Source: an uncultured delta proteobacterium (GTDB taxonomy: Bacteria; Myxococcota_A; Polyangia; Haliangiales; Haliangiaceae). From it: a DNA stretch of 64,000 nucleotides. The notes under the pieces were generated by a model. The model searched no databases. It worked only from the letters and a program-made list of their open reading frames with translations, and was not told where the DNA came from. The first letter of the stretch is position 1. Each line of letters starts with the position of its first letter. Positions 1 through 17,085 of this stretch are shown here, one piece after another. Both the position numbers and the translations under genes were made by a program. The stretch covers positions 1,600,001 through 1,664,000 of the forward strand of contig CAWKDB010000010.1 of NCBI GenBank assembly GCA_963848295.1, written 5' to 3'.

Positions 1-48
1 CCGGTCAAGCTACCACCGTTCCACTACGTCGAAGACGAGGTGGCGTAA
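1..48 (+). CDS. 3' end of an upstream CDS (partial, ...PVKLPPFHYVEDEVA*)
   Basis: Frame is open from base 1 to TAA at 46-48, which overlaps the next ATG (TAATG), suggesting translational coupling. Confidence 0.55.
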   Translation, partial: PVKLPPFHYVEDEVA

Positions 49-833
49 TGATCGAGCTCGAGCCAATTGTCACACGCGTCGCCCATACCGGTGCCGACGA
101 GCTCCGCTTCCAGGGACGCAAGGTCTTCGCCGAGCTGCTCGGCCACGCGTCGGTCGGGCAGATGCTCGTGCTTGGGATCAGCGGCAAGCTGCTCGATGCG
201 GAGGCGATCGCGATCATCGACGACATCGTGACCGCGATGTCCTCGGCCGATCCGCGCATGTGGCCGTTCAAGTTGACCCGGCTCGGCGCGGCGCACGGGC
301 TTGCATCACTCGGCACCTCGGTAAGTCTGATCGCCGCTGAGGGCGGAATGTTCGGCTCGAATCGGATGTTGGCCTCGACGACCTGGCTGCTCGACCTTCA
401 CGGAGCCGTCGGCGCGGGACCGATCGAGAAGGCTGCGATCCTGGACGCCCTCGATCGCGATTCCCGCGGGTTCGGAGTCCTCTACCGCGCTCGTGACGAG
501 CGATTCGAGGCCCTAGTACGACAGATCGTTCGACGCGGTCGTGCCGAGCGTCCCTTCACGGCGCTATGCCTGCGCGCAGTCGAGGTCGCTCGCACCGAGC
601 GTAAGGTCGAACCACATGTGTTCCTCGTGGTCGCCGCGATCTGCCTCGACCTCGGCATCGCGCCCCACGCCATCGCCAGCGTCGCGACCTTGTTGCTGTT
701 TCACGATTCGTTGGCAAACGCGGTCGAAGGTGCGCATCAGCACCCAACCTCCCTACAGTCGCTGCCTCGCCGATGCGTTGACTATGTAGGAGTTCCAACG
801 CGCACGAGCGAGCGCGCGAACCGATCGAAATAG
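48..833 (+). CDS. Citrate synthase/citryl-CoA lyase-like fold protein with degenerate active site
   Basis: N-terminal 'TRVAH...LRFQGRKVFAELLG', 'GFGVLYRARDERF' (resembles GFGH..DPR) and 'AAICLDLG' resemble citrate-synthase-like proteins. Confidence 0.6.
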   Translation: MIELEPIVTRVAHTGADELRFQGRKVFAELLGHASVGQMLVLGISGKLLDAEAIAIIDDIVTAMSSADPRMWPFKLTRLGAAHGLASLGTSVSLIAAEGGMFGSNRMLASTTWLLDLHGAVGAGPIEKAAILDALDRDSRGFGVLYRARDERFEALVRQIVRRGRAERPFTALCLRAVEVARTERKVEPHVFLVVAAICLDLGIAPHAIASVATLLLFHDSLANAVEGAHQHPTSLQSLPRRCVDYVGVPTRTSERANRSK

Positions 834-873: not shown

Positions 874-1389
874 ATGATCGCAGCACCTCCGGGGCTTCGG
901 CTGATCGAAGCCACTGAAAAATGGGCGATGGGGGAGTACGAACGCTGCTTGGCGATGATCTGGAGCGGTCAGCCAGATCCCGAAGCGATGCGAAGGCGCG
1001 CAGCGCAGCTCGTCGAGCTCTGCGGGAAGTACCCCGGCCGGTGCGCGCTCGTCGAGGTCGTCGAACCGACGTCGAAGCCGCCCAACAATCAAACCCGCAA
1101 GATCGCGATGGATGTGTTCCGCGAGCTAGGTCCGAAGCTCTCGTCGATTAGCTTCGTGCTCGAGGGTGGCCAGATGAGCTCGGTGCTCGCCCGCGCGGTG
1201 ATCACGGGCATGCTGTTCTTCCTGAAGCAGCCCCAGCCGTCGAAGGTATTCAAGCACGTCCGCGACATGGCTAATTGGGTCAAGCCGCGCATCCAACCCG
1301 ACAACCCGGAGTTCGAAGTCGGGCTCGGTGCTGCGTTCGAACATCTTCGCGAGGTCATGCGCTCGCACGGACACGGTAGTTCGCAGTAA
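874..1389 (+). CDS. STAS/SEC14 (SpoIIAA-like) domain protein
   Basis: 171 aa alpha/beta pattern; 'SISFVLEGG...ARAVITGM...KVFKHVRDMANWV' resembles myxobacterial STAS/SEC14-like proteins. Confidence 0.5.
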   Translation: MIAAPPGLRLIEATEKWAMGEYERCLAMIWSGQPDPEAMRRRAAQLVELCGKYPGRCALVEVVEPTSKPPNNQTRKIAMDVFRELGPKLSSISFVLEGGQMSSVLARAVITGMLFFLKQPQPSKVFKHVRDMANWVKPRIQPDNPEFEVGLGAAFEHLREVMRSHGHGSSQ

Positions 1390-1397
1390 CTTGCAGC

Positions 1398-3786
1398 GTG
1401 GTCGAGGATGTCGCGAGCGCCGACGCCGTCGCCGAGCTAGAGCGTCAAGCGCGCCGGCTCGATACCGCATATAGCGTCATCCAGGCGGTCCACGAAGAGC
1501 TCGCGCTCGATCACATGGTGGCATCGATCGCCCAGCAGCTCGTCGAGGTCGCCGGATTCAGCGGCGCCGAGATCCGGCTGAACGCCGACTTCGACGGGTT
1601 TCATGTCGAACAATCGGCGTCCGCAGGTACTCCTCCGGCGACGCAGAGCTGACGCGGGTCACACCGATCTTCATCCGCGGCACCGAGATCGGGACGATCG
1701 TGACGCACTTCCGCTCGGTCGACGCGATGGGCGAGCAGTCCGAGCTCCTCGAGTTCGTGCTGCCGACTCTGTCCTCGGCATCGATCACGCGGTGTCGTTC
1801 GCCGAGGTGCTCGACTACCGGGCCACGCTGGAGAAGCGCGTCGAGGAACGCACCGCCGAGCTCCACGAGGCCCATGTCCAGCTCGAGCACACGATCGAAG
1901 ACCTTCGCGAGACCAGGCTGTCGCGCGACCGATTCTTCGCGAACATCAACCACGAGATCCGCACGCCGCTGACGCTGATCCAACTTGCCGCCGAGGCGGT
2001 GACGCTGTCACGTGAGGCGACGCCGATGGTGCGCGAACGCGGCGAGGAGATCCACACCGCAACCCGGCGGTTGCTGCATCTCGTCAACAGCTTGCTCCAG
2101 CTCGCCGCCGGTCACGAAGGCAAGCTCCAGGTCAAGCCGCGCGCGGTCGACGCCGCGGCGAACGTGCGCAACCTCGTCGCGAGCTGGAACACCGCTGCCA
2201 GCCACGCGCGCATCGAGCTCGCGTTCGACGGGCCCGAGCACTGCCCCGCGTCACTCGATGAAGCGGCGCTCGACACCGTCGTCGGCAACTTGGTGTCGAA
2301 CGCGGTGAAGTTCACCCCGCCCGGTGGGCGCGTCACCACGTCGATGCGCGCGACCGACAGCGAGATCACGATCGGCGTCCGCGACACAGGCGTCGGCATC
2401 GATCCCGAGTTCATCCCGAAGCTGTTCGGTAGGTTCGAACGGTCGACCAGCACCTCGGGGATTCGCGGCAGCGGCATCGGCCTCGCGCTCGCGAAAGATC
2501 TGGTCGAGCTGCAGGGCGGCACGCTGGCGGTGTTCCGCCACGAGGATCCTCGGGGCACCGAGTTCGTGCTGACGCTGCCGCGTCATCAACCGATCGCGGC
2601 GGTGATCGCGGACCCGAGCAGCGCACCGCAGCGCCGACCGATTCCGCTGACCCCGACGACGCCACAGCCGGACGTCGAAGTGAGCGTCCGCGCACCCGCC
2701 CCGATCGCGCCGGAGCATGCGGCAGCGACGATCGTGCTCGCCGAGGATGACGCCGGGCTCGCCCGTCAGGTCGCCAACATCCTGTCGGAACACTACCGCG
2801 TGTTGGTCGCTAGCAACGGCAGGGATGCGCTCGAGCTCGCGAGAAAACATCGCCCGGACTTGCTCGTTACCGACCTCGACATGCCGGAGATGGACGGCAT
2901 CGAGCTGACCAAGCAGTTCGTCGCGATCGAGGGGATGGCGTTGTCGCCGGTGTTGATCGTGAGCGCTCACTCCGGGCTCGGCGAGCGGCTCGCGGGGTTC
3001 GAGGCCGGTGCGGTGGACTACGTCACGAAGCCATTCTCGGCCGAGGAGCTGCTCGCCCGCATTCGCTCCCAGCTCGCGATGCGCAAGCTCGCGCTTCGGC
3101 TACACGAGAACGAGAAGCTCGCGGCGATGGGCATCATGTCGGCCGGGCTCGCGCACGAGCTGCGCAATCCGGCGAACGCGATCGTCAACGCGCTCGACCC
3201 GCTGCTGTCGCTGCTGCCCGAGGCTCAACGCCAGCCGGGATCGGCCGGCAAGTTGCTATCGCAAGTGCTGACCACCGCCGGCACTCAGCTGCGCGATCGC
3301 TGCCGCAGCATCCTCGACCTGTCGCGCACCGGCAAGTTCGACCGAAAGCCGGAGGCGCTCGCCCCCTTGATCGCGCGGTCGCGGCTCGTGCTCCGCACCC
3401 AGCTCGCCGAGATCACCGTGGTCGAGACCGCCAACGTGCAACCGGCGTCGTGTTCCGGATCCATGATCGAACAGATCCTGGTCAACCTGCTCGATAACGC
3501 CGCGTACGCTGCCGGGCGCGGCGGCACGATCTGGATCGAGGCGCGCGACGAAGGCGATCTCGCGGTGGTCGAGATCAGGGACAGCGGCGCCGGCGTGCCT
3601 CCGGCGCTACGCCAACGGATCTTCGAGCCGTTCTACACGACGAAGCCCGTGGGCATCGGCACCGGCTTGGGCTTGAGCGTGTCGCGCCGGATCGCGCTCG
3701 ATCACGGTGGCGACCTTCGCATCGTCGCGCGCGGCGACGACACCGTGTTCAGGCTCGAGCTACCACGTCAGCAACGCGCGAGTTGA
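1398..3786 (+). CDS. Hybrid sensor histidine kinase (GAF-like, HisKA/HATPase, REC, second HisKA/HATPase), broken by two 1-bp deletions near 1630 and 1772
   Basis: H-boxes 'NINHEIRTPL' and 'GLAHELRNPA'; N and G boxes 'NLVSNAVKFT', 'RDTGVGI', 'GSGIGL', 'NLLDNA', 'GTGLGL'; REC 'AEDD..VTDLDMP..KPF'. The N-terminus continues across three frames. Confidence 0.85.
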
Positions 3787-5125
3787 GCGCCGCCCCCGGG
3801 CCGATCCGCGGAGCTGGTGCCGCGCGTACGACCAAGCCTTTGCTCGGGGTCAGGAACGCGCCGCGCCAGCTCGGCACGACCTCGCGCTGGACGATCTCGA
3901 GCGAGAACCGCTCGATCATCGACGCGAGCACGAGCTTGATCTCGAACATCGCGAACGGCATGCCGAGGCAGCGCCGCGTCCCGCCGCCGAACGGCACGGA
4001 CTCGTACGGCGAGTACTTCGCGGTCATGAACCGCTCGGGCCAGAACTCGCCGGCGCGCTCGAACACCTGTGGCTTGCGGTGGACGGCGTGAAACGCGACG
4101 CTGACCATCGCGCCGGCAGGAACGCGATATCCGCCGAGCGTGAAGTCGCGCTTGACGATCCGGCCGCTGCCGTTCGGGATCATCGAGTAGTAGCGCAGCG
4201 ACTCGCGGATCACGGCGTCCATGTACGGCAGCTCGCCGCCGACGCCGTTCGGGCTCGCCGCGAGCTCGGCGCGCAGCTTCGCGAGCACGCTCGGCCGGCT
4301 GAACACCGCGTAGCTCAGCCATGTGAGCGACATCGCGGTGGTCTCGTGACCGGCGGCCACGATCGTCATGATCTCGTCGCGGACCTCGTCGTCCGAGAGC
4401 GGCGAGCCGTCGTCGTGGCGCGCCGCGAGCAAGAGGCCGGTGATGTCGTTCTGTTCGGTCAGGTCGGCGCGGCGCCGGCGGATCTCGGTCTCGACCGCCG
4501 CCCGCGCAGCGGCGACGACGCGCAGCACCCGACCCCACGGACTGAGCGCACCGAGATCGCGTTGCAACGCCGGGAACATCAGCAAGCGCGACGTCACCGC
4601 GCGGTTCGCGAAGTTGCGCAACGCCTCGAGCAGCTCGCCGACCAGCCGCGGTGGCGTCGCCGAGAACAGCGCGCGCCCGATCACATCGAACGCGATGCGA
4701 TGCATGTATGGATGGAGCGCGAACGTGCCGCCCTTCGGCATCGCGTCGAGCGTGCGCTCGCAGGCATCGAGCATGACCGGCCGAAACCCTTCCATCATCT
4801 CGCCGCGAAACCGGGGCAGCATCAGCCGGCGGCGCTTGAGGTGCGCCGGACCGTCGAGCAACAGCGTCGACGACTGGCCGAGCAGCTTGCCGAAGATCTT
4901 GATCTTCGCCTCGCCCGCGACCAGCGTGTCCTCGCCGGAGGTGTAGACCTCTTTCGCGAGCTCGGGCGAGCACACGAACACCATGCCGTGATTGACGAGC
5001 TTGATCGAGAACACATCGCCGTAGCGACGCTGGCACTGCTCGATGTAGCCGATCGGATCGCGCATGTAGCGGATGCGCTGGACCAGCGGCGAGTCGGTGG
5101 GGCCGGGGACGGCGATGGGCGACAT
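3749..5125 (-). CDS. Cytochrome P450
   Basis: I-helix 'AAGHETT', ExxR 'ESLR', 'PERF' and heme motif 'PFGGGTRRCLG'. ATG at 5125 has GGAG upstream. Confidence 0.95.
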   Translation of the reverse strand: MSPIAVPGPTDSPLVQRIRYMRDPIGYIEQCQRRYGDVFSIKLVNHGMVFVCSPELAKEVYTSGEDTLVAGEAKIKIFGKLLGQSSTLLLDGPAHLKRRRLMLPRFRGEMMEGFRPVMLDACERTLDAMPKGGTFALHPYMHRIAFDVIGRALFSATPPRLVGELLEALRNFANRAVTSRLLMFPALQRDLGALSPWGRVLRVVAAARAAVETEIRRRRADLTEQNDITGLLLAARHDDGSPLSDDEVRDEIMTIVAAGHETTAMSLTWLSYAVFSRPSVLAKLRAELAASPNGVGGELPYMDAVIRESLRYYSMIPNGSGRIVKRDFTLGGYRVPAGAMVSVAFHAVHRKPQVFERAGEFWPERFMTAKYSPYESVPFGGGTRRCLGMPFAMFEIKLVLASMIERFSLEIVQREVVPSWRGAFLTPSKGLVVRAAPAPRIGPGAALNSRVADVVARA

Positions 5126-5136
5126 GATGACTCCGA

Positions 5137-7281
5137 TTAGTTCGCGATCGACAAGTGACGCGCCGATGCCGGGCGCGCGGGCGTGTGGACCGGTGCATTC
5201 GAGATCATCGTCGCGACGCGATCTTGCTTGACCATCGCGATGTCCTGATCGATGTGGACATCGAAGATCACCGGTCCGGTGACCTGCCGCATCATCCAGG
5301 TCGCGGCGCGAAACTGAGCGACGCTCGTGATCTTCATCGTCTGCGCACCGAGGCCGCGCGCGACCGAGCACACGTCGAGCGGTGCGGTCGAATACTTGGG
5401 ACGGCGGCCGTAGACCGTCTCGTGGCCGCGCTCGACCATGCCGAGGCGCGCGTCGTTGAACACGAACACGCGGATCGGCAGCTGCTCTTGCACTGCGGTC
5501 GCGATCTCGAACGCGTTCATCGCGAAGCAGCCATCGCCGCAGATCGCGGTGACCGTGCGGTCGGGGTGCGCGAGCTGTGCGCCGATCGCCGCGCCGATCG
5601 ATTGGCCCATCGAGCCGAGTCCGGTCATCACGATGAACGAGTCGGGCAGGGCGATCTCGAGGTACTGCACGGCGAACAGGAAGTGCTCGCCGGAGTCGAT
5701 GGTGTAGATCGTGTCCGCCGGCAAGAGGCTTTGTATGTTCGCGGATCGCGTCATGCGGCGCCGACCTTGTCGGTGCGCAGCGAGGCCGGCAGCACGTGAC
5801 GCTCGACGCCGTAGACGCCCGGCTTCGGCACGCTGCCGTCGAGCATGTCGGCGAGCCCACCGAGGAGCTCGGCTGCCGATGCGACGACCGCGTGAGTCGG
5901 CGTGTAGCTCTTGCCGATCTGACGGGCGTCGATGTCGATGTGAACGAGCGCGCGCGTGCCTTGCAGCTGCGGCGCGAACCCGTCGGTCGACATGTCGCCG
6001 AGGCTCGTGCCGATCGCGATCACGACATCGACGTCGCTGTCGAGGTACTTGCGCGCCGACGGATGCCCGCCGAGCCCGAGCACGCCGAGCGCGAGCGGAT
6101 GATCTTCGGGGAACACGCCCTTGGCCTTCGGCGTCGTCGCGACCGGGCAACCGAAGCGCTCGGCCACCGTGCGCAGCCGCGCCGGCGCGCCGTCTCCGCG
6201 CACGCCGCTGCCCGCGAGGATCAGCGGCCGCTTCGCGCCGCGGACCAGCTCGATGAGCTCTTCGAGGATCTCCGGCGCGACGTGCTCGCCGAACGTGACC
6301 GAGCCGCCGACGCGCGGCATCGAGGTCTGCGCGGTCGTCACGTCGATCGGCAGCGTCAGCATCACCGGACCCTTGCGGCCCGAGCAGCGCCGTCGCGATC
6401 GCACGGCGCAGCAGGTGCGGCAGCGCGCTCGGCCGCGGCACCTCGGCCGACAGCTTCGTGACGTGGCGCGCCATCTCGACGAGCTGGAGCCCGTGCGCCG
6501 AGCCGTCTTGCAAGACGCCCTTGCCATGCGCGAGGCGAGCGACCTCGCCGACGAGCAACAACACCGGCAAGCCGTCGCACCAGGCCGAGGCGAGGCCGGT
6601 CATCGAGTTGAGCGCACCCGGACCGGACGTGACGGCGACGACGCCGAGCTTGCCGGTCGCGCGCGCGTAGGCCGCCGCCGCGAACATCGCTCCGCTCTCG
6701 TGCCGGGTCGTGACGACGCGGATGTTCGTGTCCATCAACGCATCGTGGATCGGCGAGATCGCACCGCCGGGCAGGCCGAACACGACCTCGACACCGGCGT
6801 CGACGAGCATGTTGACGACCAGGTTCGCACCGCGGAGCTGCACCGGCTTTGCCGCCGGCACTTCGTCGAACTCGCCGGTCTGCTCGACCTCGAACTCGCT
6901 CGGGGTCGCGTGCGCCGCGACCGAGGCGACGAGCGCCTTGACGTCGAACGGCTTCGACACCACGCAGCGCGCTCCCGCGGCGCGGGCGACGTCTTCGAGG
7001 TCCGGCGCGACCACCGCGGTCGCGAGCACGATGTCGATATCGCGAGTCTCGGGGTTTGCCTTGATCCGGCGGCACGCTTCGATGCCATCGAGGCCCGGCA
7101 TGAACACGTCCATCACGATCAGGTCGGGTTTCGCGAGGCCGACTTGCAGCATCGCGTCGACTCCGTTGTCTGCGAACCGCGCATCGACCAGCTGCTGACC
7201 CCGCAACACCCGCTCCACCGCCCGGAGTTGTGACGCGTCGTCATCGACGACGAGTAGACGAGTTGTACCAGTGGAAAGCAT
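5137..7281 (-). CDS. Receiver domain fused to an acetolactate-synthase-like ThDP-dependent enzyme, with three 1-bp insertions near 6371, 5761 and 5737
   Basis: REC 'LLVVDDD..IVMDVFMP..LAT..SKPF'; PYR domain 'FGLPGG', 'TRHESGA', 'TSGPG'; middle domain 'RPLILAGSG' lies in a shifted frame; ThDP motif 'GDGCFAM...FND'. Confidence 0.85.
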   Translation of the reverse strand: MLSTGTTRLLVVDDDASQLRAVERVLRGQQLVDARFADNGVDAMLQVGLAKPDLIVMDVFMPGLDGIEACRRIKANPETRDIDIVLATAVVAPDLEDVARAAGARCVVSKPFDVKALVASVAAHATPSEFEVEQTGEFDEVPAAKPVQLRGANLVVNMLVDAGVEVVFGLPGGAISPIHDALMDTNIRVVTTRHESGAMFAAAAYARATGKLGVVAVTSGPGALNSMTGLASAWCDGLPVLLLVGEVARLAHGKGVLQDGSAHGLQLVEMARHVTKLSAEVPRPSALPHLLRRAIATALLGPQGSGDADAADRRDDRADLDAARRRLGHVRRARRAGDPRRAHRAGPRREAAADPRGQRRARRRRAGAAAHGGRALRLPGRDDAEGQGRVPRRSSARARRARARRASVGAQVPRQRRRCRDRDRHEPRRHVDRRVRAAAARHARARSHRHRRPSDRQELHADSRGRRIGSRAPRWARRHARRQRAEAGRLRRRASRAAGLAAHRQGRRRMTRSANIQSLLPADTIYTIDSGEHFLFAVQYLEIALPDSFIVMTGLGSMGQSIGAAIGAQLAHPDRTVTAICGDGCFAMNAFEIATAVQEQLPIRVFVFNDARLGMVERGHETVYGRRPKYSTAPLDVCSVARGLGAQTMKITSVAQFRAATWMMRQVTGPVIFDVHIDQDIAMVKQDRVATMISNAPVHTPARPASARHLSIAN

Positions 7282-7319: not shown

Positions 7320-8783
7320 CTACTTGGTGAGCCTTCGAACAGCGCGTCGCAGCTCGCCTACATCGAACGGCTTCTCGAAATATATAGGGCCGAGATTCGC
7401 CAGTGCGCGAGCGGCCGCCGGGTCGCCCGCGGTGACGAGAATGAACCGAGGTACGTGATGCGGCGACCGGACTTGCAGGTCCCGGACGAGCTCGATCCCA
7501 CTCATTCCAGGCATCTGGACGTCGCACACGACCGCGGCGAATTGCTCTCCCGAGATGAACCGTTGTAACGCCGAGACCGCTGAGTGCTCGACGACGACCT
7601 CGTAGTCCCGCGCCAGCAGCCTGCGCAGCGAGGTGGCGACGATGACGTCGTCGTCGACCACTAGCACGCGGGCCCGCCGGCCGAGCGCGGTCGGTCCGGA
7701 ATCTGCCTCATCGGAGCTCCCTGGCCCGCTCGGCGCATCCTCGGTCGGCCACGTGATCCGGACCCGATGACCGGCATCGAGCTCGAACGTGATGGTGCCG
7801 CCGATCGAGCGCACGATCTCCCTGAACAACGCGAGCTCGACGCCGAGCGCGCCCGTCGGGTCGACCACCGGGCCGACGTTCGGGCCGGTCGCATGGAGCT
7901 CGACGAGCGCCCATCCAGCGGAATCGACGCGGGTCGCGATCGCGAGTTGGCCGAGCTCGGGCCCACCGGGCTGGAACGCGCGCGCGATGTAGACCAGCAG
8001 CTTGACGAACAACGTCGCGATCCGCGCTTCGTTCGCGGTCAGCTCGGGGAGCGGCGCGAAGTGCGTGACGACGCGCGCCCGATCGAACAGCTGGAAGTCG
8101 ATGAGATCGATCGTGTCGCGCAGCGCGCGCACGACGTTCACTCGAGCCACCACATTGGGCGCGCGAGCGAAGGCGCCGAGGGCGCTCACGACCCGCTTGA
8201 TCCGCTCCACGCCGGACCGGGCATCGCGCATCATCGCGGAGACTTCGCTCGCGTCGAGCTTGGCGCCGGATCCGCTCAGGCCGTCGAGCATCTCGAGGTT
8301 CGCGGCGAGAAACGCGAGCGGGTTGTTGATGCCGTGGACGACGCCGGACGCGACATGCGATAGCGATGACATTCGCTCCGCCAGCGCCAGGCTCGCCGCG
8401 CGTTCGTTGCGCGCGGTCAGATCGCGCGCGATCGTCACCATGCCGACGCTCGCGCCGCTGTCGTCACGCAACGGCACCGACGCGAGCTCGACGTCGACGA
8501 TCGCGCCATCCTTGTTGAGCCAGCGCGTCTCGAACGGGCCGCAGTGCGAGCCGCGCGCGATCCGCTCGCGTCGGATCCGAGCTTCGCTGCGATCGTGCGC
8601 CGGGACGATCAGCTCGCTCGACCGGCCGACCATCTCGTCGCCGGTGTAACCGACGAGATGCTCCGCCCCGCGACTCCATCGCGTGATCGTGCCCTCGAGC
8701 GTCTCGTAGACGATCGCGTCCGGCGAGGCCTCTTCCAGGGCGAGCAGACGATGGTCGACGAGTGGGGTCGTATCGCTCGACAT
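7320..8783 (-). CDS. PAS, HisKA, degenerate HATPase and REC hybrid kinase
   Basis: PAS 'SPDAIV..GTITRWSRGAEHLVGY'; H-box 'VVHGINNPL'; C-terminal REC 'VVDDD..VCDVQMP..EKPF'. Confidence 0.85.
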   Translation of the reverse strand: MSSDTTPLVDHRLLALEEASPDAIVYETLEGTITRWSRGAEHLVGYTGDEMVGRSSELIVPAHDRSEARIRRERIARGSHCGPFETRWLNKDGAIVDVELASVPLRDDSGASVGMVTIARDLTARNERAASLALAERMSSLSHVASGVVHGINNPLAFLAANLEMLDGLSGSGAKLDASEVSAMMRDARSGVERIKRVVSALGAFARAPNVVARVNVVRALRDTIDLIDFQLFDRARVVTHFAPLPELTANEARIATLFVKLLVYIARAFQPGGPELGQLAIATRVDSAGWALVELHATGPNVGPVVDPTGALGVELALFREIVRSIGGTITFELDAGHRVRITWPTEDAPSGPGSSDEADSGPTALGRRARVLVVDDDVIVATSLRRLLARDYEVVVEHSAVSALQRFISGEQFAAVVCDVQMPGMSGIELVRDLQVRSPHHVPRFILVTAGDPAAARALANLGPIYFEKPFDVGELRRAVRRLTK

Positions 8784-8916: not shown

Positions 8917-9903
8917 CTAGGTCTTGTGCCGGAGCCAGCGATGCAGCGTCGACGGGTCGATCCCGAGCTGTTGCGCTGCTTTCGTCTTGTTGTGATCGCA
9001 GCGCTCGAGCACCCACGCGACGTACTCGGCCTCGACCTCGCGGAGTGTGGCCCGGCGCTCGCGCGGTAGCTCGTAGCGCTCGGTGCCATGGTCTCGGACG
9101 ACGTACGGCACGAAGCGCGCGATATCGGCGGCCGACAGCTCGCGGGTGCCGCCGAACACGGTGAGGCGTTCGATCAGATTCTCGAGCTCCCGGACGTTAC
9201 CGGGCCAGGCGTAGCGGCTGAGTAGCGGGACGACGTCCGGCGCCAACTGTTCGACCGTCGCGCGCGGATTGCGCGTTCGCGCCCGATCGAAGAAGTGCGC
9301 GACGAGGGCCGGGAGATCCTGGGGGCGCGCCCGCAGCGGTGGGACGGCGATCGGCACGACGTCGAGGCGATAGAACAGATCCGCCCGGAACTGGCCGGTG
9401 CGGATTCGCTCCTCGAGATCGCGATTCGTCGCGGCGATCACGCGGACGTCGACGTGGCGAGCACGATCGGCGCCGACCGCGCGCACCTCGCCGTCCTGGA
9501 GCACGCGCAGCAACTTCGCTTGCAACGTCGACGGCATGTCGCCGACCTCGTCGAGGAACAGCGTGCCGCCGCTCGCCTCCGCGAACAGCCCGTCGCGGCC
9601 GCCGACCGCGCCCGTGAACGCGCCGCGAGCGTGACCGAACAACTCGGTCTCGACGAGCGCTTCCGGCATCGCGGTGCAGTTGATCGCCACGAACGGTCCG
9701 GCTCGGCGCGGGCTCGCGTCGTGGATCGCACGCGCGACGAGCTCCTTGCCGGTGCCGCTCTCGCCGCGGATCAACACCGGCGCAGGCGACGGGGCGACGC
9801 ACTCGATGAGCCGAACGAGCTCCGCGATCGCATCGCTCGTGCCGACGAGTCGCGGTGTGGTTGCCGGGGAAATGTCGAAGCTATAGTCGGGCGCGGAACG
9901 CAT
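8917..9903 (-). CDS. Sigma54-dependent activator (AAA+ and Fis-type HTH) with no N-terminal regulatory domain
   Basis: 'GESGTGKE', 'ELFGHARGAFTGA', 'LFLDEVG', '[10 protein letters not shown]' and HTH 'NKTKAAQQLGI'. The longer upstream ORF extension is not protein-like. Confidence 0.9.
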   Translation of the reverse strand: MRSAPDYSFDISPATTPRLVGTSDAIAELVRLIECVAPSPAPVLIRGESGTGKELVARAIHDASPRRAGPFVAINCTAMPEALVETELFGHARGAFTGAVGGRDGLFAEASGGTLFLDEVGDMPSTLQAKLLRVLQDGEVRAVGADRARHVDVRVIAATNRDLEERIRTGQFRADLFYRLDVVPIAVPPLRARPQDLPALVAHFFDRARTRNPRATVEQLAPDVVPLLSRYAWPGNVRELENLIERLTVFGGTRELSAADIARFVPYVVRDHGTERYELPRERRATLREVEAEYVAWVLERCDHNKTKAAQQLGIDPSTLHRWLRHKT

Positions 9904-10393: not shown

Positions 10394-10409
10394 TGGCGTG
10401 ACGCGTGCA
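10394..10409 (+). promoter_or_regulatory. Putative sigma54 -24/-12 promoter
   Basis: TGGCGTGACGCGTGCA fits GG-N10-GC, with 14 nt between the GC and ATG 10423. Confidence 0.5.
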
Positions 10410-10422
10410 AATCCGTGGTCGC

Positions 10423-10875
10423 ATGCAAGATCACCTCGATTCGGAGCAGGCGTTCGACGACGAACCGACTCGGCCGATCGAGCCGCGACCGGCGCGGGTG
10501 TTGATCGCCGAAGATGATCCGGCGCTGCGCGCGCTGATGGTGTCTCGCCTCCGCGCCGATGGCTGCGAGGTGATCGAGGTGCGCTCGGGCGATCAGGCAC
10601 TCGATGCGCTGACCGACGCCGCGATCGACGCCGACCATCGCTCGCTGTCGCTCGTCGTGCTCGATCATCGCATGCCCGGGCTCACCGGCATGGAGGTGTC
10701 GTATCTCGTACGCGCCTGGGGCATGAAGATGCCCGTCCTGCTCGTCACCGCGTATCCCGACCCGGAGATCTTCGACGAAGCCGACCTGTTGAACGTGCGA
10801 GTGCTGGCGAAACCGTTCGCCTTCACCCAACTGAGCCGGATCGCGGCGGCCGCGATCGATCGTCGACCATCGTGA
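10423..10875 (+). CDS. Single-domain response regulator
   Basis: 'VLIAEDD', 'VLDHRMP', 'VTA', 'KPF'. Confidence 0.85.
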   Translation: MQDHLDSEQAFDDEPTRPIEPRPARVLIAEDDPALRALMVSRLRADGCEVIEVRSGDQALDALTDAAIDADHRSLSLVVLDHRMPGLTGMEVSYLVRAWGMKMPVLLVTAYPDPEIFDEADLLNVRVLAKPFAFTQLSRIAAAAIDRRPS

Positions 10876-11903
10876 GCTCGCTCGCTCGCCATCCGATCCT
10901 CGGCGCCGTCGTGTTGATGGCGATCGTCGCGATCGCCGACTACGTGACCGACGTCGAGATGACGTTCGTCGAGCTGACCTACCTGCTGCCGATCACGCTC
11001 GCGACCTGGCACAGCGGTCGCGTCGCGGGCATCTGTCTCGCGGTGCTCGCCACGTTCAGCACGACCGCCATCTTCGTGCACGAATCGACGACGGCATCGG
11101 CGTTGGGCGTCAGCCTCAACGCGATCGGCGCGTTCGGCATGTTCGCCGCGATGATCGGGATCCTCGACGCGTTGCGCGGCCACGTCGAACGCGAGCGCGC
11201 TCAGCGCCGGCTCGCGATCGAACAATTGCGACACTCGGAGCGACTCAACGTCCTCGGCGTGCTCGCCGCCGGTGTGGCGCACGAGCTCGGCACGCCGCTC
11301 AACGTGATCTCGGGCGCTGCCGAGATGCTCCAGGAGCTCGAGCCCGATCGAGTCGACGCCCGCCACGCCGCTCGCATGATCCTGACCCAGACCGAGCGGA
11401 TCACCTCGATCATCCGTCACCTGCTCGACTTCGGCCGGCGCGGCAACGCCAGCTCGAAGCAACTGGTGGATCCCGAACGCGCCGCGGCGTCGGCCGTGGA
11501 GTTACTCACCCCGACCGCGTCGAAGGCCGGCACGACGATCAAGTTCACGCCGAGCACGCCGAGCGGCCGGGTTCGCGCGGACCTCGCGGAGATCGAGCAG
11601 GTCGTGTCGAACCTGATCCTCAATGGGATTCAAGCGATGCCGCGCGGCGGGACGCTCGAGGTCGCGACGGCGATCGAGGACGGGTTCGCGGCGATCACGG
11701 TCGTCGACGCGGGCACCGGGATCCGCGAGGCCGACCTGCCGTACATCTTCGATCCGTTCTTCACCACGAAGGGGGTCGGCCAGGGCACCGGGCTCGGGCT
11801 GTCGGTCAGCTACGGCATCGTCGGCGACTGCGGGGGTACGATCGATGTCGCGAGCGCGATCGGTGCGGGCACGAAGTTCGTCGTGCGCCTCCCGCTTGCT
11901 TAG
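10872..11903 (+). CDS. Membrane-bound sensor histidine kinase
   Basis: About four N-terminal TM segments; 'VAHELGTPL', 'NLILNG', 'DAGTGI', 'FFTTK..GTGLGL'. GTGA overlap with the upstream response regulator. Confidence 0.9.
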   Translation: MSSLARHPILGAVVLMAIVAIADYVTDVEMTFVELTYLLPITLATWHSGRVAGICLAVLATFSTTAIFVHESTTASALGVSLNAIGAFGMFAAMIGILDALRGHVERERAQRRLAIEQLRHSERLNVLGVLAAGVAHELGTPLNVISGAAEMLQELEPDRVDARHAARMILTQTERITSIIRHLLDFGRRGNASSKQLVDPERAAASAVELLTPTASKAGTTIKFTPSTPSGRVRADLAEIEQVVSNLILNGIQAMPRGGTLEVATAIEDGFAAITVVDAGTGIREADLPYIFDPFFTTKGVGQGTGLGLSVSYGIVGDCGGTIDVASAIGAGTKFVVRLPLA

Positions 11904-12967
11904 CGATCGCCGGCGCGGCGCATTGCACGGTCGTCGAAGCGCGCGATCGCGGAGGCCAGCGCAGCACGCTCCGCTGGGCTCGGCCTGATCGAAAGCGTCG
12001 CCGAGATTCCGGTCTTCGCGCGCTTCCACGTCCCGACGACCTTGCCATCGATCAACAGCGCGTTCGAGAAGATGATGCCGCCCCGCCCGACCGACCGCGC
12101 CCGCACGCGATCGTCGATCACCTCGACCCGATCGACGTACGCGACCAGATACTCGTCGAAGTTCGCGAGCACGTGCGCGATCGGCGTGCGCGGTCTCGCG
12201 ATCACCGAGCCCGCGTCGGCGGCACCGACGAGGTAGCTCGTACCGTCGTACCGCTCCGCCGCAAGCCCATCGCCGGCGAGCGCAACCGCGAGTCGGCAGT
12301 CCGCGACGGTCAGGCCCGACCACCACGCAAGATCGGCGATCGTCGCCGGACCGTGGCCCGTGAAGAATCGCCGCGCGAGCTCGGCGAGTGCGGGCTCGCG
12401 ATCGAGCGTGGCCGTAGGCACTCGATCCGCGACGAGCGCGTAGGTGTGCTGGTTACCGCGCAGCGCCCCGCTGCAGATGATCGCGTCGAGCTCGGCGCGC
12501 ATCAAGATCTGGACGAGTCGCTGCCCGGTCGCGGCGAGGTTCGCGCGGGCGAACACCGCGACGAGCTCGGCGCGAGTCCGTTGAACGCCGGCGAGCTCGC
12601 GCTCGAACACGGCGCGCGTCCGCGCGAACACCTTGTCGTCGAGCCCGCACTTGCGATCTTGATACGCGCACAACTGGCGAACGCGTGGCGCGGTGAGCTG
12701 CTGCAGCCAGCGCAGATCGGTGGCCGCCACCAGGTGCCACGTCGGGCGCATCACGTGGGTACGCACGATCGCTCCACTCGCGAATGCCGCGGCCACCTCG
12801 CCGGCCGCGCTCGGGGCGAGTCGCTGCGCCACGGCCCAGCTCGCGCCGGCGAAGTCTTGCGCCTGTACCGCGCCGAGGTGGTGAACGAGCTCGCGGGCAC
12901 TGTGTTCGCGGGACGCGACCAGCCGGTGCGCGCGCAGCCGACGGCGGAGCACGGCGGCCGAGATCAT
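11900..12967 (-). CDS. AlkZ-like (HTH_42) DNA glycosylase family protein
   Basis: 'GAVQAQD', 'RTHVMRPTWH', 'GPATIADLAWWSG', 'NFDEYLVAY', 'DGKVVGTWK'. Confidence 0.85.
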   Translation of the reverse strand: MISAAVLRRRLRAHRLVASREHSARELVHHLGAVQAQDFAGASWAVAQRLAPSAAGEVAAAFASGAIVRTHVMRPTWHLVAATDLRWLQQLTAPRVRQLCAYQDRKCGLDDKVFARTRAVFERELAGVQRTRAELVAVFARANLAATGQRLVQILMRAELDAIICSGALRGNQHTYALVADRVPTATLDREPALAELARRFFTGHGPATIADLAWWSGLTVADCRLAVALAGDGLAAERYDGTSYLVGAADAGSVIARPRTPIAHVLANFDEYLVAYVDRVEVIDDRVRARSVGRGGIIFSNALLIDGKVVGTWKRAKTGISATLSIRPSPAERAALASAIARFDDRAMRRAGDR

Positions 12968-13154: not shown

Positions 13155-14396
13155 ATGACTCGCGCGCGCCTCGTCATCGCCGGGATCCTCTTGTCCGCTG
13201 CCGCTTGCGGCAACAGCTCGAACGGCTCGCCCGATGGCCTCACCGTCGACGCGAAGCCTGATGCGTTCGAGCTCGGCGTCGAGGCGATCCCGCTGACCAC
13301 GCCGGACGGCAGCTACTACAACGTGTCGCTGATGATGGGTGCCGGCACGTTCGCGCTCGATCTCGATACCGGCTCGACCTCGGTCGGCGTCGCCGGCTCG
13401 ACGTGCACCGGTTGCGGCGTCACCCCGCTCTACAACGCATCGAGCGGGACCGATCTGCACAAGACGGCGTCGACCGAGTACGACGACGGCACCGGCTGGT
13501 CGGGCGAGATCTACTCGGACAGCGTCTCGCTCGGCCACGAGACCCCATCGGTGAAGATCGCGTTCGTCGATATCACCGCACAACAGAACGGCTTCTTCGA
13601 CGGCTCGGACTACCAGGGCATCATGGGCCTCGGCCCGCAGCAGAATGCCGAGGACGGCACGACCGCGTATGTCGATGCCGCGAGCGCTGCAGGCGTCCCG
13701 AAGATCATGGCGTTCGAGCTGTGCCCGTCGCACGGAAACATGTGGTACGGCGGCTTCGATCCGAGCGCCGGCACCGGCGACGTCCAGTACGCGACGATGA
13801 TCCCGATCGACGACAACAACCCGTACTACGCCATCAACATCGACGACATGCAGCTCGGCGGCACGAGCCTCGGCTTCACCGCCCCCGATTTCCAGGAGCC
13901 GATCCTCGACACCGGCACGAGCTACACGTATCTGCCGACGCCCGTGCACACCGCGCTCGTCAACGCGATCAATGCGGACCCGGCGTTCCAGTCGATGTTC
14001 AACTCCAAGAAGATCAGCGACAACACCTGCGTGACCAAGGCCGGCTCGACCGCGGCGCAGGTCGATGCAGCGTTGCCCGTGCTGTCGATGAAGGTGCCGT
14101 CCGCGTCGGGCGACATCACGATCTCGGTGCCCCCGAGCCAGTCGTACCTGCTCGACTTCGGCGGCGGCCAATGGTGCCTCGGGATCGCCGACGGCGGCGC
14201 GGACGGCGGCGGCACGCTCGGCGATACGTTCATGCGCGGCTACCTGTCGGTCATCGACACGCAGGGCAGCCGGATCGGCTTTGCTCCCGACGCGGGCTGT
14301 GCCGCGTCCGGCGACCCGAACACGATTATCCACATGACCAAGCCGCACCACCCGCGGCCGCACCCGCGCTCGCCGGCGACGTTGAACCGGAAATAA
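13155..14396 (+). CDS. Pepsin-like (family A1) aspartic protease, lipoprotein
   Basis: Lipobox 'SAAAC'; two catalytic motifs 'LDTGS' and 'LDTGT'; 'GIMGLG'; 'TLGDTFMRGY..VID...RIGFA'. Confidence 0.85.
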   Translation: MTRARLVIAGILLSAAACGNSSNGSPDGLTVDAKPDAFELGVEAIPLTTPDGSYYNVSLMMGAGTFALDLDTGSTSVGVAGSTCTGCGVTPLYNASSGTDLHKTASTEYDDGTGWSGEIYSDSVSLGHETPSVKIAFVDITAQQNGFFDGSDYQGIMGLGPQQNAEDGTTAYVDAASAAGVPKIMAFELCPSHGNMWYGGFDPSAGTGDVQYATMIPIDDNNPYYAINIDDMQLGGTSLGFTAPDFQEPILDTGTSYTYLPTPVHTALVNAINADPAFQSMFNSKKISDNTCVTKAGSTAAQVDAALPVLSMKVPSASGDITISVPPSQSYLLDFGGGQWCLGIADGGADGGGTLGDTFMRGYLSVIDTQGSRIGFAPDAGCAASGDPNTIIHMTKPHHPRPHPRSPATLNRK

Positions 14397-15456: not shown

Positions 15457-17085
15457 TTACGGCTCGAGCAGGATCGGATTGCCATCGACCGGCGCCGAGC
15501 CGACGCACGGGTGAGAGACGCCGGGACCGAGTGGGGAGATCTCGAATAGGCGGCAGTACGAGTGATACGAACCGCAGTCGATCGTCGACGCGCTCGCAGT
15601 GTCCCACGCGATCAGCGCGGTGTAGCCCGGCGCGGCGAGCGCGGTCGGCGAGCACCCGGTGAGCCGTGTCGGATCCTTGCCGGTGATCGCGTAGGTCCAC
15701 TGGGTGTCGGCGTGAGACAGCGGGCCCATCGTAGCGCCGACCAGCCACTGATACATCGCGGCCCACGCGTAGGTGGTCGCGGTTGGCTGTAGCGTCGCGG
15801 TCGCCTTGATGTAGTCGCCGAACGAGCCCCACTCGCCCGCGCCCGGGGCGTACCAATAGAACCGCGCGACGCCCGCGGCGAGCATCTGCAAGTAGCCGCG
15901 CACGAGGAACCCCGGCGCGGGTGCGTTCGTGAGCGTCGTCTTCGTCGTCGTGATCGTCTCGGTCGCGATGCTGTCGGCATCCATGCACGGCTTGATCGGC
16001 GCGTCGAGGCAGCCGCAGTCGCTGTTCGCGCACAGCGCGGTCGAGTTGCCGTTCGTTTGATAGTTCTCGCCCCAGCCGCCTTCGTCGACCCACATCGGCT
16101 TGCCGCCCATGTGGTCTTGCTCGCCGGTCGTGAGCGCCGCGTAACTGGCGAGCCGCGTCGCCCAGTTGACCTCGGGCATGCCGGCCGCAAACGCCTGCGT
16201 GTCTCCCGCGGAATCACCGGTGCCGTAGATGTGGAACACGAGCATGTCGGCGACGTCGCCCGGCGACGGCGTCTGGTCGAGGTAGTACTTCAGATCGTCG
16301 TAGCCCGCCGCTTGCGTGAACGACGGCGTGCCGACGACGACGGTCGGGTCGACGTACTTCACGATCCTTTGTAGGTCGGTCGCGGCGCGCGCGAGGTTCG
16401 CGCATGGCGTCGCCTGGTTGGCCTGACACGGAGGCGTCAGGTACTGCTTCGAGTTGACCTCGTTGCCGGGCGAGAAGCTGCGGATCTGCAGCGTGCCGTG
16501 CCAGCCGTTCGCCTCGCTGCAGCCGTCGCAGGTCTTCATCGCGAGCGCGAACACGAACTCCTGAAACGCACAGTCGTCCTGCGGCAGAGCCGCGGCGGTG
16601 CGAAACGACGCAGGGATGTTCACGCAATCCGCGCCGGTCGGCATCGTCAGATCGTCGGGGAGCACGCCGGAGCCCGCGCCACCGACGGGATGACTCCAGT
16701 CCGGATAGTCAGCCGCGACGAAGTGGACGTCGCTGTTGTGCGCGAGGAACGCGCCGAGACTCGCCCAGCTCCAGCACGACGCATCGAGCTGCGTCGGATC
16801 GCAGCGCGCGGTCTCGAGCCCGGCCCAGTCGACGTCGGAGCCCCAGGTCCGCAAGCTCCCGATGTCCGAGCCCGCGAGGGTCGGCCACGGCGTGTTCACC
16901 TTCGGCGCCGACGCGGGGTTCGCCGGCCAGTTGATCGAGAACAACATCGGCGTCACGCCGGTGTGACCGACCGCGGCGTCGCCGGCATCGCTGTCGGCGA
17001 CGACGTCCTGGCCCGGCGCGCTATCGATGACCGTCGCGCTGTGCGAGCTGCAGGCTGTGAAGACGAGCGCGATCGCGAATCGCAT
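15457..17085 (-). CDS. Lipoprotein with clan GH-A (GH39-like) glycoside hydrolase domain
   Basis: Lipobox 'FTAC'; acid/base 'GNEVN'; 'FHIYG'; nucleophile-like 'PMWVDEGGW'; 'RFYWY'. Confidence 0.6.
   Translation of the reverse strand: MRFAIALVFTACSSHSATVIDSAPGQDVVADSDAGDAAVGHTGVTPMLFSINWPANPASAPKVNTPWPTLAGSDIGSLRTWGSDVDWAGLETARCDPTQLDASCWSWASLGAFLAHNSDVHFVAADYPDWSHPVGGAGSGVLPDDLTMPTGADCVNIPASFRTAAALPQDDCAFQEFVFALAMKTCDGCSEANGWHGTLQIRSFSPGNEVNSKQYLTPPCQANQATPCANLARAATDLQRIVKYVDPTVVVGTPSFTQAAGYDDLKYYLDQTPSPGDVADMLVFHIYGTGDSAGDTQAFAAGMPEVNWATRLASYAALTTGEQDHMGGKPMWVDEGGWGENYQTNGNSTALCANSDCGCLDAPIKPCMDADSIATETITTTKTTLTNAPAPGFLVRGYLQMLAAGVARFYWYAPGAGEWGSFGDYIKATATLQPTATTYAWAAMYQWLVGATMGPLSHADTQWTYAITGKDPTRLTGCSPTALAAPGYTALIAWDTASASTIDCGSYHSYCRLFEISPLGPGVSHPCVGSAPVDGNPILLEP

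Follow-up and report, generated by a model that had tools for sequence, protein, structure and literature searches.

In the Vibrio CqsA/CqsS and Legionella LqsA/LqsS systems, the gene for an alpha-hydroxyketone signal synthase lies beside that of its sensor kinase; the synthases are pyridoxal phosphate enzymes and the sensors are membrane proteins. Bacillus comQXPA is a further linked synthesis/receptor locus, comparable to agr of Staphylococcus. The locus analysed here lies in a 64,000-nucleotide stretch of contig CAWKDB010000010.1 (the window; positions 1,600,001 to 1,664,000) from the genome of an uncultured myxobacterium (G000, 85% complete) and is built around a gene that fuses a response-regulator receiver domain (REC) to a thiamine diphosphate (ThDP)-dependent enzyme, here called REC::ThDP. 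Unlike the CqsA and LqsA systems, it has an exchangeable tailoring cassette and carries a receiver on the putative synthase.

In agr, recombination swaps the linked synthesis genes and receptor, and leaves the response regulator in its own genome (PMC8768832). As in agr and com, a putative synthase, a putative receptor kinase and a response regulator stand in one locus here, with a hypervariable segment (synthesis genes plus receptor input) between conserved flanks. Like those of Staphylococcus agrBDCA, the synthesis genes and the receptor input are exchanged jointly and the flanks are constant. Unlike agr, the proposed chemistry is that of a small molecule, not a peptide; the receptor is a cytoplasmic HK-REC-HK protein (HK, histidine kinase) of H-NOX fold, joined by a REC-HK; and in the fused clade it is the synthase that carries the last receiver, without any DNA-binding domain.

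On the biosynthetic side, the CybE homologues BbmA and CsmA make alpha-hydroxy-beta-keto acids (PMC12395478). A ThDP enzyme and a beta-ketoacyl-ACP synthase III (KAS III) form the core pair for furanolides, which are antibacterial or algicidal (PMC8777810, PMC12395478). In scytonemin biosynthesis, ScyA joins indole-3-pyruvate and hydroxyphenylpyruvate into the beta-keto acid that ScyC cyclises (PMC7997468). As far as described there, the scytonemin two-component pair works on transcription, unlike the proposal made here.

The REC::ThDP fusion is real. Reading the minus strand from 7281, Pfam places Response_reg (aa 10-121) and TPP_enzyme_N (aa 150-259) in the same frame, with zero stops and zero indels between the receiver and the PYR domain. 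This agrees with the preliminary description of this DNA, in which an intact receiver was seen to run without stop or frameshift into an acetolactate-synthase-like enzyme; its placing of the indels well past the junction also holds, the first lying ~450 nt beyond the start of the ThDP part. The receiver has the residues of a response regulator: an acidic pair (within D13-D14-D15), the phospho-accepting Asp (D58, in VMDVFMP), a Ser/Thr switch (T88) and Lys-Pro (K110-P111). TPP_enzyme_M falls in a different frame. The nearest relative, G117, has an intact 717-aa orthologue (88% DNA identity to the window; enzymes 96% identical), against which the window copy carries one surplus base each near 6387, 5762 and 5744 and shows a compensated -1/+1 pair at 5560/5566.

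The fusion is not a product of chance, because 17 of 24 same-genus genomes in a first draw have it as a single open frame. An order-wide search, in which the best 15 candidates were scored per genome, matched at least 91 of 147 genomes; one unpublished genome, G010, is entered as a non-match in both tallies and in the genus ilvC tally given below. A one-gene fusion, as first described, is also what the homologues show, with the receiver and all three TPP domains in 120/120 of the best homologue clusters (nine of the 13 with a taxon label being Kofleriaceae). Two separate genes are ruled out for the fused clade by the single frame across the family and the intact G117 gene.

Key residues are conserved in both halves of the protein. 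The phospho-accepting Asp, the Ser/Thr and the Lys are each present in all 120 homologue clusters, the DDD acidic cluster in all 114 rows with residues there, and the ThDP catalytic Glu in 120/120, with an invariant GDG motif. The dN/dS of the receiver is 0.03-0.16 across five close pairs; between the window and G117 it is 0.062 for the receiver and 0.044 for the PYR domain. By this measure, the receiver is under purifying selection, as is the enzyme. Receivers fused to standard enzymes, with a narrow one-family distribution, are a general trend (PMC5847659), and the fusion fits this trend of narrow-range response regulators with metabolic-enzyme outputs. In the literature searched, a scope outside which the main bacterial response-regulator censuses lie, neither a ThDP carboligase output nor a description of a REC-ThDP fusion or of this locus was found.

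The origin of the fusion was traced in a sample of 86 loci, made up of one per genome from 80 of the 91 matching genomes and six of 30 further loci (two duplicates and 22 distant or fragmentary ones were dropped). The gene is fused in 53 loci, split in 25 and without a receiver in 8. Each of the 25 split loci has its receiver in a separate HTH_17-REC gene immediately upstream, and an upstream helix-turn-helix (HTH) domain is seen in 0/53 fused loci. A quick, midpoint-rooted maximum-likelihood tree of 85 enzymes groups the fused forms in one clade (55 rows, SH-aLRT 99, three receiver-less members included) among split forms. When the receiver profile of the split-form HTH-REC protein is run against G000, the fused receiver ranks first of 131 (119 vs 58 bits). 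No orthologous HTH was found in G000, where one match elsewhere in the genome was weak (21 bits), and an HTH-less receiver as a stand-alone gene occurs in none of the sampled loci. A single fusion event that joined an HTH-receiver regulator gene to a ThDP gene, with loss of the DNA-binding domain, is likely from this comparison.

Upstream of the HTH-REC gene, a palindrome, TCACCC-N5-GGGTGA, holds a fixed position in 18 of the 25 split loci (L072-L090, L127-L130) and is followed by a TTGAC-type promoter-like site. It is kept in two basal fused loci (L111, L113) and absent at that position from the other 51. The palindrome was not counted as proof of a lost transcriptional loop: it is kept without an HTH, so its binder is left open.

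The gene order is ThDP gene, variable cassette and a constant 390-aa REC-HK. In G000 the REC-HK falls immediately outside the left edge of the window (C10, about 1597984-1599170) and is frame-broken twice. Of the 53 fused loci, 41 have it downstream, as do 17 of the 25 split ones; among the loci without it, 18 lie on short contigs, one is that of G000 with its frameshifted copy, and one is a true absence. The preliminary description missed this gene, as it did the HTH-receiver ancestry and the fact that enzymes and sensor input are exchanged jointly (described below). Features of the locus within the window are collected in Table 1.

Table 1. Features of the REC::ThDP locus in the window (positions counted from its first letter).
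Feature	Position	Strand	Remarks
REC::ThDP fusion gene	5137..7281	-	~714 codons; three extra bases put the middle domain out of frame
Receiver domain, aa 10-121	6919..7254	-	PF00072, 74 bits; D13/D14, D58 (7110-7108), T88, K110
Pro/Ala/Glu-rich linker	6844..6918	-	Sequence and length unconserved
ThDP PYR domain	6505..6834	-	PF02776, 124 bits; catalytic Glu195 in TTRHE (6699-6697)
ThDP central domain, shifted frame here	5859..6266	-	PF00205, 134 bits
ThDP PP domain	5257..5697	-	PF02775, 120 bits; GDG...ND cofactor motif, GDG at 5538-5530
Cytochrome P450 of variable cassette	3749..5125	-	p450, 246 bits; AGHETT, ESLR, heme Cys 3970-3968
Cassette sensor, GAF-like-HK-REC-HK, inverted	1398..3786	+	Without H-NOX-fold domain; frame changes near 1640 and 1772
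Small myxobacterial protein	874..1389	+	No Pfam family; weakly SpoIIAA-like
Citrate-synthase/citryl-CoA-lyase-like protein	48..833	+	Weak NCBIfam citryl-CoA lyase matches below cut-off
Upstream PAS-HK-REC	7320..8783	-	Pseudokinase in this strain and in G117

Complete loci number 59 (42 fused, 17 split), and their cassettes were sorted by a marker search that missed a few further genes (such as other P450s and an FAD enzyme). The 42 fused ones hold KAS III alone (12), KAS III with a P450 (7), a P450 with a pair of citrate-synthase-like genes (5, the window type), KAS III with a radical SAM enzyme (4), a ScyC homologue (4), a methyltransferase (3), KAS III with an O-methyltransferase and a P450 (3) or one of two single types; 2 are empty. 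Cassette enzymes and an HK-REC-HK sensor occur together in 55 of the 59 loci, neither occurs in 4, and one without the other in 0. The relay residues are kept, both in the sensor (first His 60/60, Asp 59/60, second His 58/60) and in the REC-HK (Asp and His 54/54).

The preliminary description had coupled the fusion to the adjacent P450. The layout it reported is correct: the P450 ATG at 5125 lies 11 nt past the TAA at 5139-5137, with GGAG between, and the double kinase is convergent on it, the two overlapping by 38 nt at the stop of the HK-REC-HK gene, which begins near 1398 and holds two frame changes. This close spacing fits co-translation, and action of the P450 on the ThDP product is a candidate only. 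The claim of a fixed P450 partner is ruled out, however; this is one of about ten exchangeable cassettes, occurs in 5 of 42 complete fused loci, and is replaced by ScyC in G117. The best solved relatives of the P450 are distant (127 bits), and no redox partner is seen within the cassette.

The window cassette is a rarer type, consisting of the P450, an inverted H-NOX-less sensor, two citrate-synthase-like genes and a small protein. The partner citrate-synthase-like paralogue lies just left of the window (G000:C10:1599344-1600048), and the pair co-occurs. The GAF-like label of the sensor is a lead only (score 0.84; all GAF leads are below 0.9). The small protein is present in 7/7 complete loci with an H-NOX-less sensor and in 0/54 loci in which all sensors have the H-NOX fold; because of this restriction it may be a candidate for a separate ligand-binding subunit, the loci being partly kin. 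In two distant myxobacterial loci (L045 6173-11181, L187 5748-9691), a ThDP gene without a receiver is accompanied by these two citrate-synthase-like genes and by a kinase or input-domain gene, and because of this pairing the cassette type appears to predate the fusion. A further locus (L109 9327-17069) has both sensor types with KAS III and a P450, suggesting a cassette in mid-replacement or a two-signal strain.

As described earlier, a PAS hybrid kinase adjoins the fusion upstream, but it is degenerate here: the H-box reads HG, not HE, the N-box Asn is gone, the G boxes are deleted, and there is no Pfam HATPase_c match. The N-box Asn and G boxes are also lost in G117; the motifs are intact in the other aligned relatives, except for two altered N boxes. 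Of the 53 fused loci, 24 have a homologue immediately upstream; none of the 25 split loci does. In this strain, the PAS kinase is ruled out as phosphate donor on its motifs.

In most loci, the sensor opens with a 195-aa domain. Its fold, predicted from an alignment (pLDDT 87.6; a single-sequence fold of the sensor N-terminus with pLDDT 49 was discarded), is the H-NOX/V4R fold (Foldseek E 7e-6; Z 13.3, rmsd 3.7, 165 residues aligned), with further structural matches to the VirS ligand domain (Z 10.8) and PoxR (7.4). A profile of the domain run against PDB sequences gave nothing significant. The heme motifs of H-NOX proteins are a conserved proximal His and YxSxR; here the best His column holds 27/58 and YxSxR 0/58, leaving heme gas sensing unsupported. 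The sensor is cytoplasmic in the model.

The identity of this input domain tracks that of KAS III, with a partial rho of 0.60 after accounting for flanks and kinase core (36 loci), and KAS III and the kinase core give a partial rho of -0.06 in the same loci; the kinase core instead tracks the ThDP enzyme (rho 0.90). The partial correlation of KAS III and input domain is 0.47 over 40 loci and 0.61 over 25 fused loci (0/999 permutations). Over 53 loci, the enzyme class changes 8 times on the input-domain tree vs 15 times on the ThDP and kinase-core trees, and the input domains of the four ScyC loci form one clade, their ThDP enzymes being scattered. Close pairs display the exchange directly. G061 and G116 share 93% identity in the ThDP enzyme, 95% in the REC-HK and 30% in the input domain; G090 and G086 share 97% (ThDP), 99% (REC-HK), 90% (kinase core), 47% (input domain) and 36% (KAS III). 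In the pairs G090/G086 and G064/G107, the DNA sequences match up to the ThDP stop codon, then diverge, and match again from ~946 nt inside the sensor gene, with crossovers near sensor codon 316. As judged from these alignments, the tailoring enzymes and the sensor input domain are exchanged together between close relatives while the flanks remain constant, and this joint exchange points to a signal-receptor locus. One contig, L167 (G115:C60, 8396-16597), carries three H-NOX-fold sensor kinases beside KAS III and a P450; their input domains are 41-68% identical and two of the sensors are short, possibly extra receptors for the signals of other strains.

The enzyme has the ThDP catalytic Glu and GDG motif and stands nearer BbmA (368 bits) and CsmA (288 bits), the closest solved structures, than the acetohydroxyacid synthases (acetolactate synthases, 267 bits). 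The closest described systems are these alpha-hydroxy-beta-keto acid synthases, with CybE, and the CybE-CybF furanolide pair, represented in myxobacteria by cybEF of Plesiocystis and Enhygromyxa. The intact orthologue P0001 scores below every NCBIfam cut-off shown: its best match, acolac_lg (TIGR00118), reaches 380 bits vs a cut-off of 538, which leaves it outside IlvB, and the ScyA models NF035923 and NF035927 reach 264 vs 1000 and 244 vs 1020 bits, which leaves it outside ScyA. As in the scytonemin ScyA-ScyC and the NzsH/CqsB3 carbazole pathways, a ScyC homologue follows the ThDP gene in four loci (351-372 bits, cut-off 400), among them G117 (372 bits). Unlike the scytonemin cluster, the ThDP gene is far from the ScyA models and no other scy genes were seen. 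An aromatic acyloin-type precursor is the likely predicted product in the window, because G117 has ScyC and the enzymes are 96% identical. Acyloin-type chemistry in general is very probable, judging by the ScyC and KAS III partners.

As in furanolide cybEF, a KAS III-like gene, a candidate counterpart of CybF, accompanies the ThDP gene in most loci (40 of 59 complete loci: 26/42 fused, 14/17 split; none in the window cassette). Unlike the furanolide pair, many of the cassette KAS III proteins lack the FabH Cys; two types occur (L021, L030 and others), with the Cys kept in 17 and replaced in 27, and the triad Asn is mostly missing; the Cys-less type would need other chemistry. Also unlike furanolide clusters, the enzyme here has an N-terminal receiver and is flanked by a three-kinase relay; in the main text of PMC8777810, the words 'kinase' and 'regulator' do not occur. 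The acyl-CoA synthetase CybC is absent from the cassette genes scanned, among which no systematic search for it was made. A Trp-halogenase-family gene follows KAS III and the sensor in one distant Polyangiaceae locus (L043 1632-3044), as reported for E. salina SWB007 (supplement of PMC8777810).

In the reading preferred here, the REC::ThDP fusion would be the fixed left end of an exchangeable locus and the synthase of a cell-to-cell signal. The cassette enzymes would tailor its product, the sensor would read the product of the cassette, and the receptor relay would end on the fused receiver, phosphorylating Asp58. The phosphorylated receiver would then switch the ThDP synthase directly. A relay that ends on the fused receiver is probable, and sensing of the cassette's own product is favoured somewhat less strongly; a change of enzyme output on phosphorylation is given slightly better than even chances. 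These components, with the chemistry, are not independent of one another. The reading as a whole, a signal synthase-receptor locus with a relay acting on the synthase itself, stands about evenly balanced. A bolder version is offered tentatively: that Kofleriaceae would use acyloin-derived kin or quorum signals in at least 10 interchangeable dialects, received by cytoplasmic, heme-free H-NOX-fold kinases, with feedback in the large fused clade running through the phosphorylated synthase and without transcription. A complex prediction for the receiver and the ThDP part scored 0.00 in two runs and was used neither for nor against.

Several observations weigh against the preferred reading. The linker does not resemble a rigid signalling helix: it is Pro/Ala/Glu-rich, unconserved and variable, measuring 39-56 aa from KP to GxPGG in 113/120 homologues and reaching 102 in one locus. 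The receiver is missing from three proteins within the fused clade (L076, L124, L126), so the enzyme can persist alone. In G014 and G115, the cassette lies on a different contig from the ThDP gene. The cassette enzymes and the input domain adjoin, so that co-transfer alone gives part of their correlation, and related loci are not independent in it. Members of the input-domain family occur widely, in 79 of 401 phylum genomes, and the distant ones mostly lie far from any ThDP gene (40 loci inspected). The window's own sensor has no H-NOX-fold domain, making this step of the argument weakest exactly there. Finally, frameshifts in G000 affect all three genes for the ThDP enzyme, the sensor and the REC-HK, but spare the P450, both citrate-synthase-like genes and the small gene of the same locus.

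This last pattern bears on a rival confined to this strain, in which the locus is a decaying, signal-blind remnant whose frameshifts are real. Besides the hits to the three core signalling genes, the degenerate PAS kinase favours it, and agr operons are frameshifted in >5% of genomes (PMC8768832). Frame-split genes form clusters elsewhere in the assembly too, however: of the 7 found among 82 tested in G000, two lie in the REC-ThDP locus and five outside it. Zero nonsense codons are present, dN/dS against G117 is 0.04-0.06, and a relative's contig (run X2, record 14 of a sequencing-run search) lacks the extra base at 6387. No zero-difference read fragments crossed the indel sites in the sequencing runs, in which run shares were small. 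Assembly errors are the likelier cause by a fair measure; decay keeps about a third of the weight because all three core signalling genes are frame-hit, and it concerns the window copy, not the family.

A second alternative accepts the signal locus and denies the receiver control of catalysis, making it a tethered single-domain regulator or phosphate sink with other proteins as its targets, or a part by which the enzyme docks at the kinase complex. The loose linker and the three receiver losses are what would be expected, and such a fusion is obtainable by deleting the HTH and a stop codon in a co-transcribed pair. Against this, the fusion is kept in 53 of 56 loci of the fused type, and a sink need not stay fused, yet no sampled locus has a separate HTH-less receiver. 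This alternative and the next are the main rivals for the family; this one is considered unlikely.

Less likely still is a weapon or specialised metabolite, furanolide- or indole-acyloin-like, whose output the kinases would tune inside the cell by sensing the product, its precursor or a compound from a competitor, without counting kin. The prevalence of KAS III in fused and split loci, its place with a ThDP enzyme at the core of antibacterial or algicidal furanolide synthesis (PMC8777810, PMC12395478) and the cytoplasmic sensor of the model would suit it. The cassettes are small, however, with one to four enzymes and no transporter or resistance gene among the genes scanned; the crossovers inside the receptor gene keep the input domain with the enzymes, which is the pattern of signal specificity groups; and G115 has its two extra short receptors.

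That the enzyme is a housekeeping acetolactate synthase, with the receiver standing in for the regulatory subunit IlvN, is very improbable: although acolac_lg is the best NCBIfam match and no IlvN was found, the score is far below cut-off, the nearest relatives are acyloin-type synthases, the neighbours are tailoring enzymes and kinases, a search of the 85%-complete G000 found no ilvN, ilvC or over-cut-off ilvB, and ilvC exceeds its cut-off in 20 of 91 genus genomes and is lacking in 45 of the 63 with a ThDP match. The preliminary description, which saw no ilvN or ilvC in the window and suspected an enzyme other than a housekeeping one, is upheld in both respects.

Were the signal-locus reading true, a response regulator would here act by forming carbon-carbon bonds, with an autoinduction loop on the enzyme and not on the promoter. 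It would also add a family of small-molecule signals for a group of myxobacteria represented in this analysis by metagenome-assembled genomes alone. How the fusion arose, by loss of the HTH and joining to a synthase, would be visible among living relatives. Natural cassette swaps provide ready matched and mismatched enzyme-receptor pairs, so that specificity can be studied in vitro with no need of cultures, and they lead towards new compounds of indole or furanolide-like type and towards ligands for heme-free H-NOX-fold domains.

Other genes of the window lie beyond the PAS-HK-REC. The gene at 15457-17085 (-) encodes a 542-aa protein that begins like a lipoprotein and matches no Pfam family, and that at 11900-12967 (-) an AlkZ-like DNA glycosylase family protein (198 bits). 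A sigma-54 activator (8917-9903, -) consists of AAA+ and Fis HTH domains without a receiver or other input domain; it adjoins a stand-alone receiver (10405-10875) and a membrane kinase (10872-11903), and the same block is present in G117. At 13155-14396 (+), this bacterial genome encodes a pepsin-like aspartyl protease (Pfam Asp, 109 bits) with a signal-peptide-like start.

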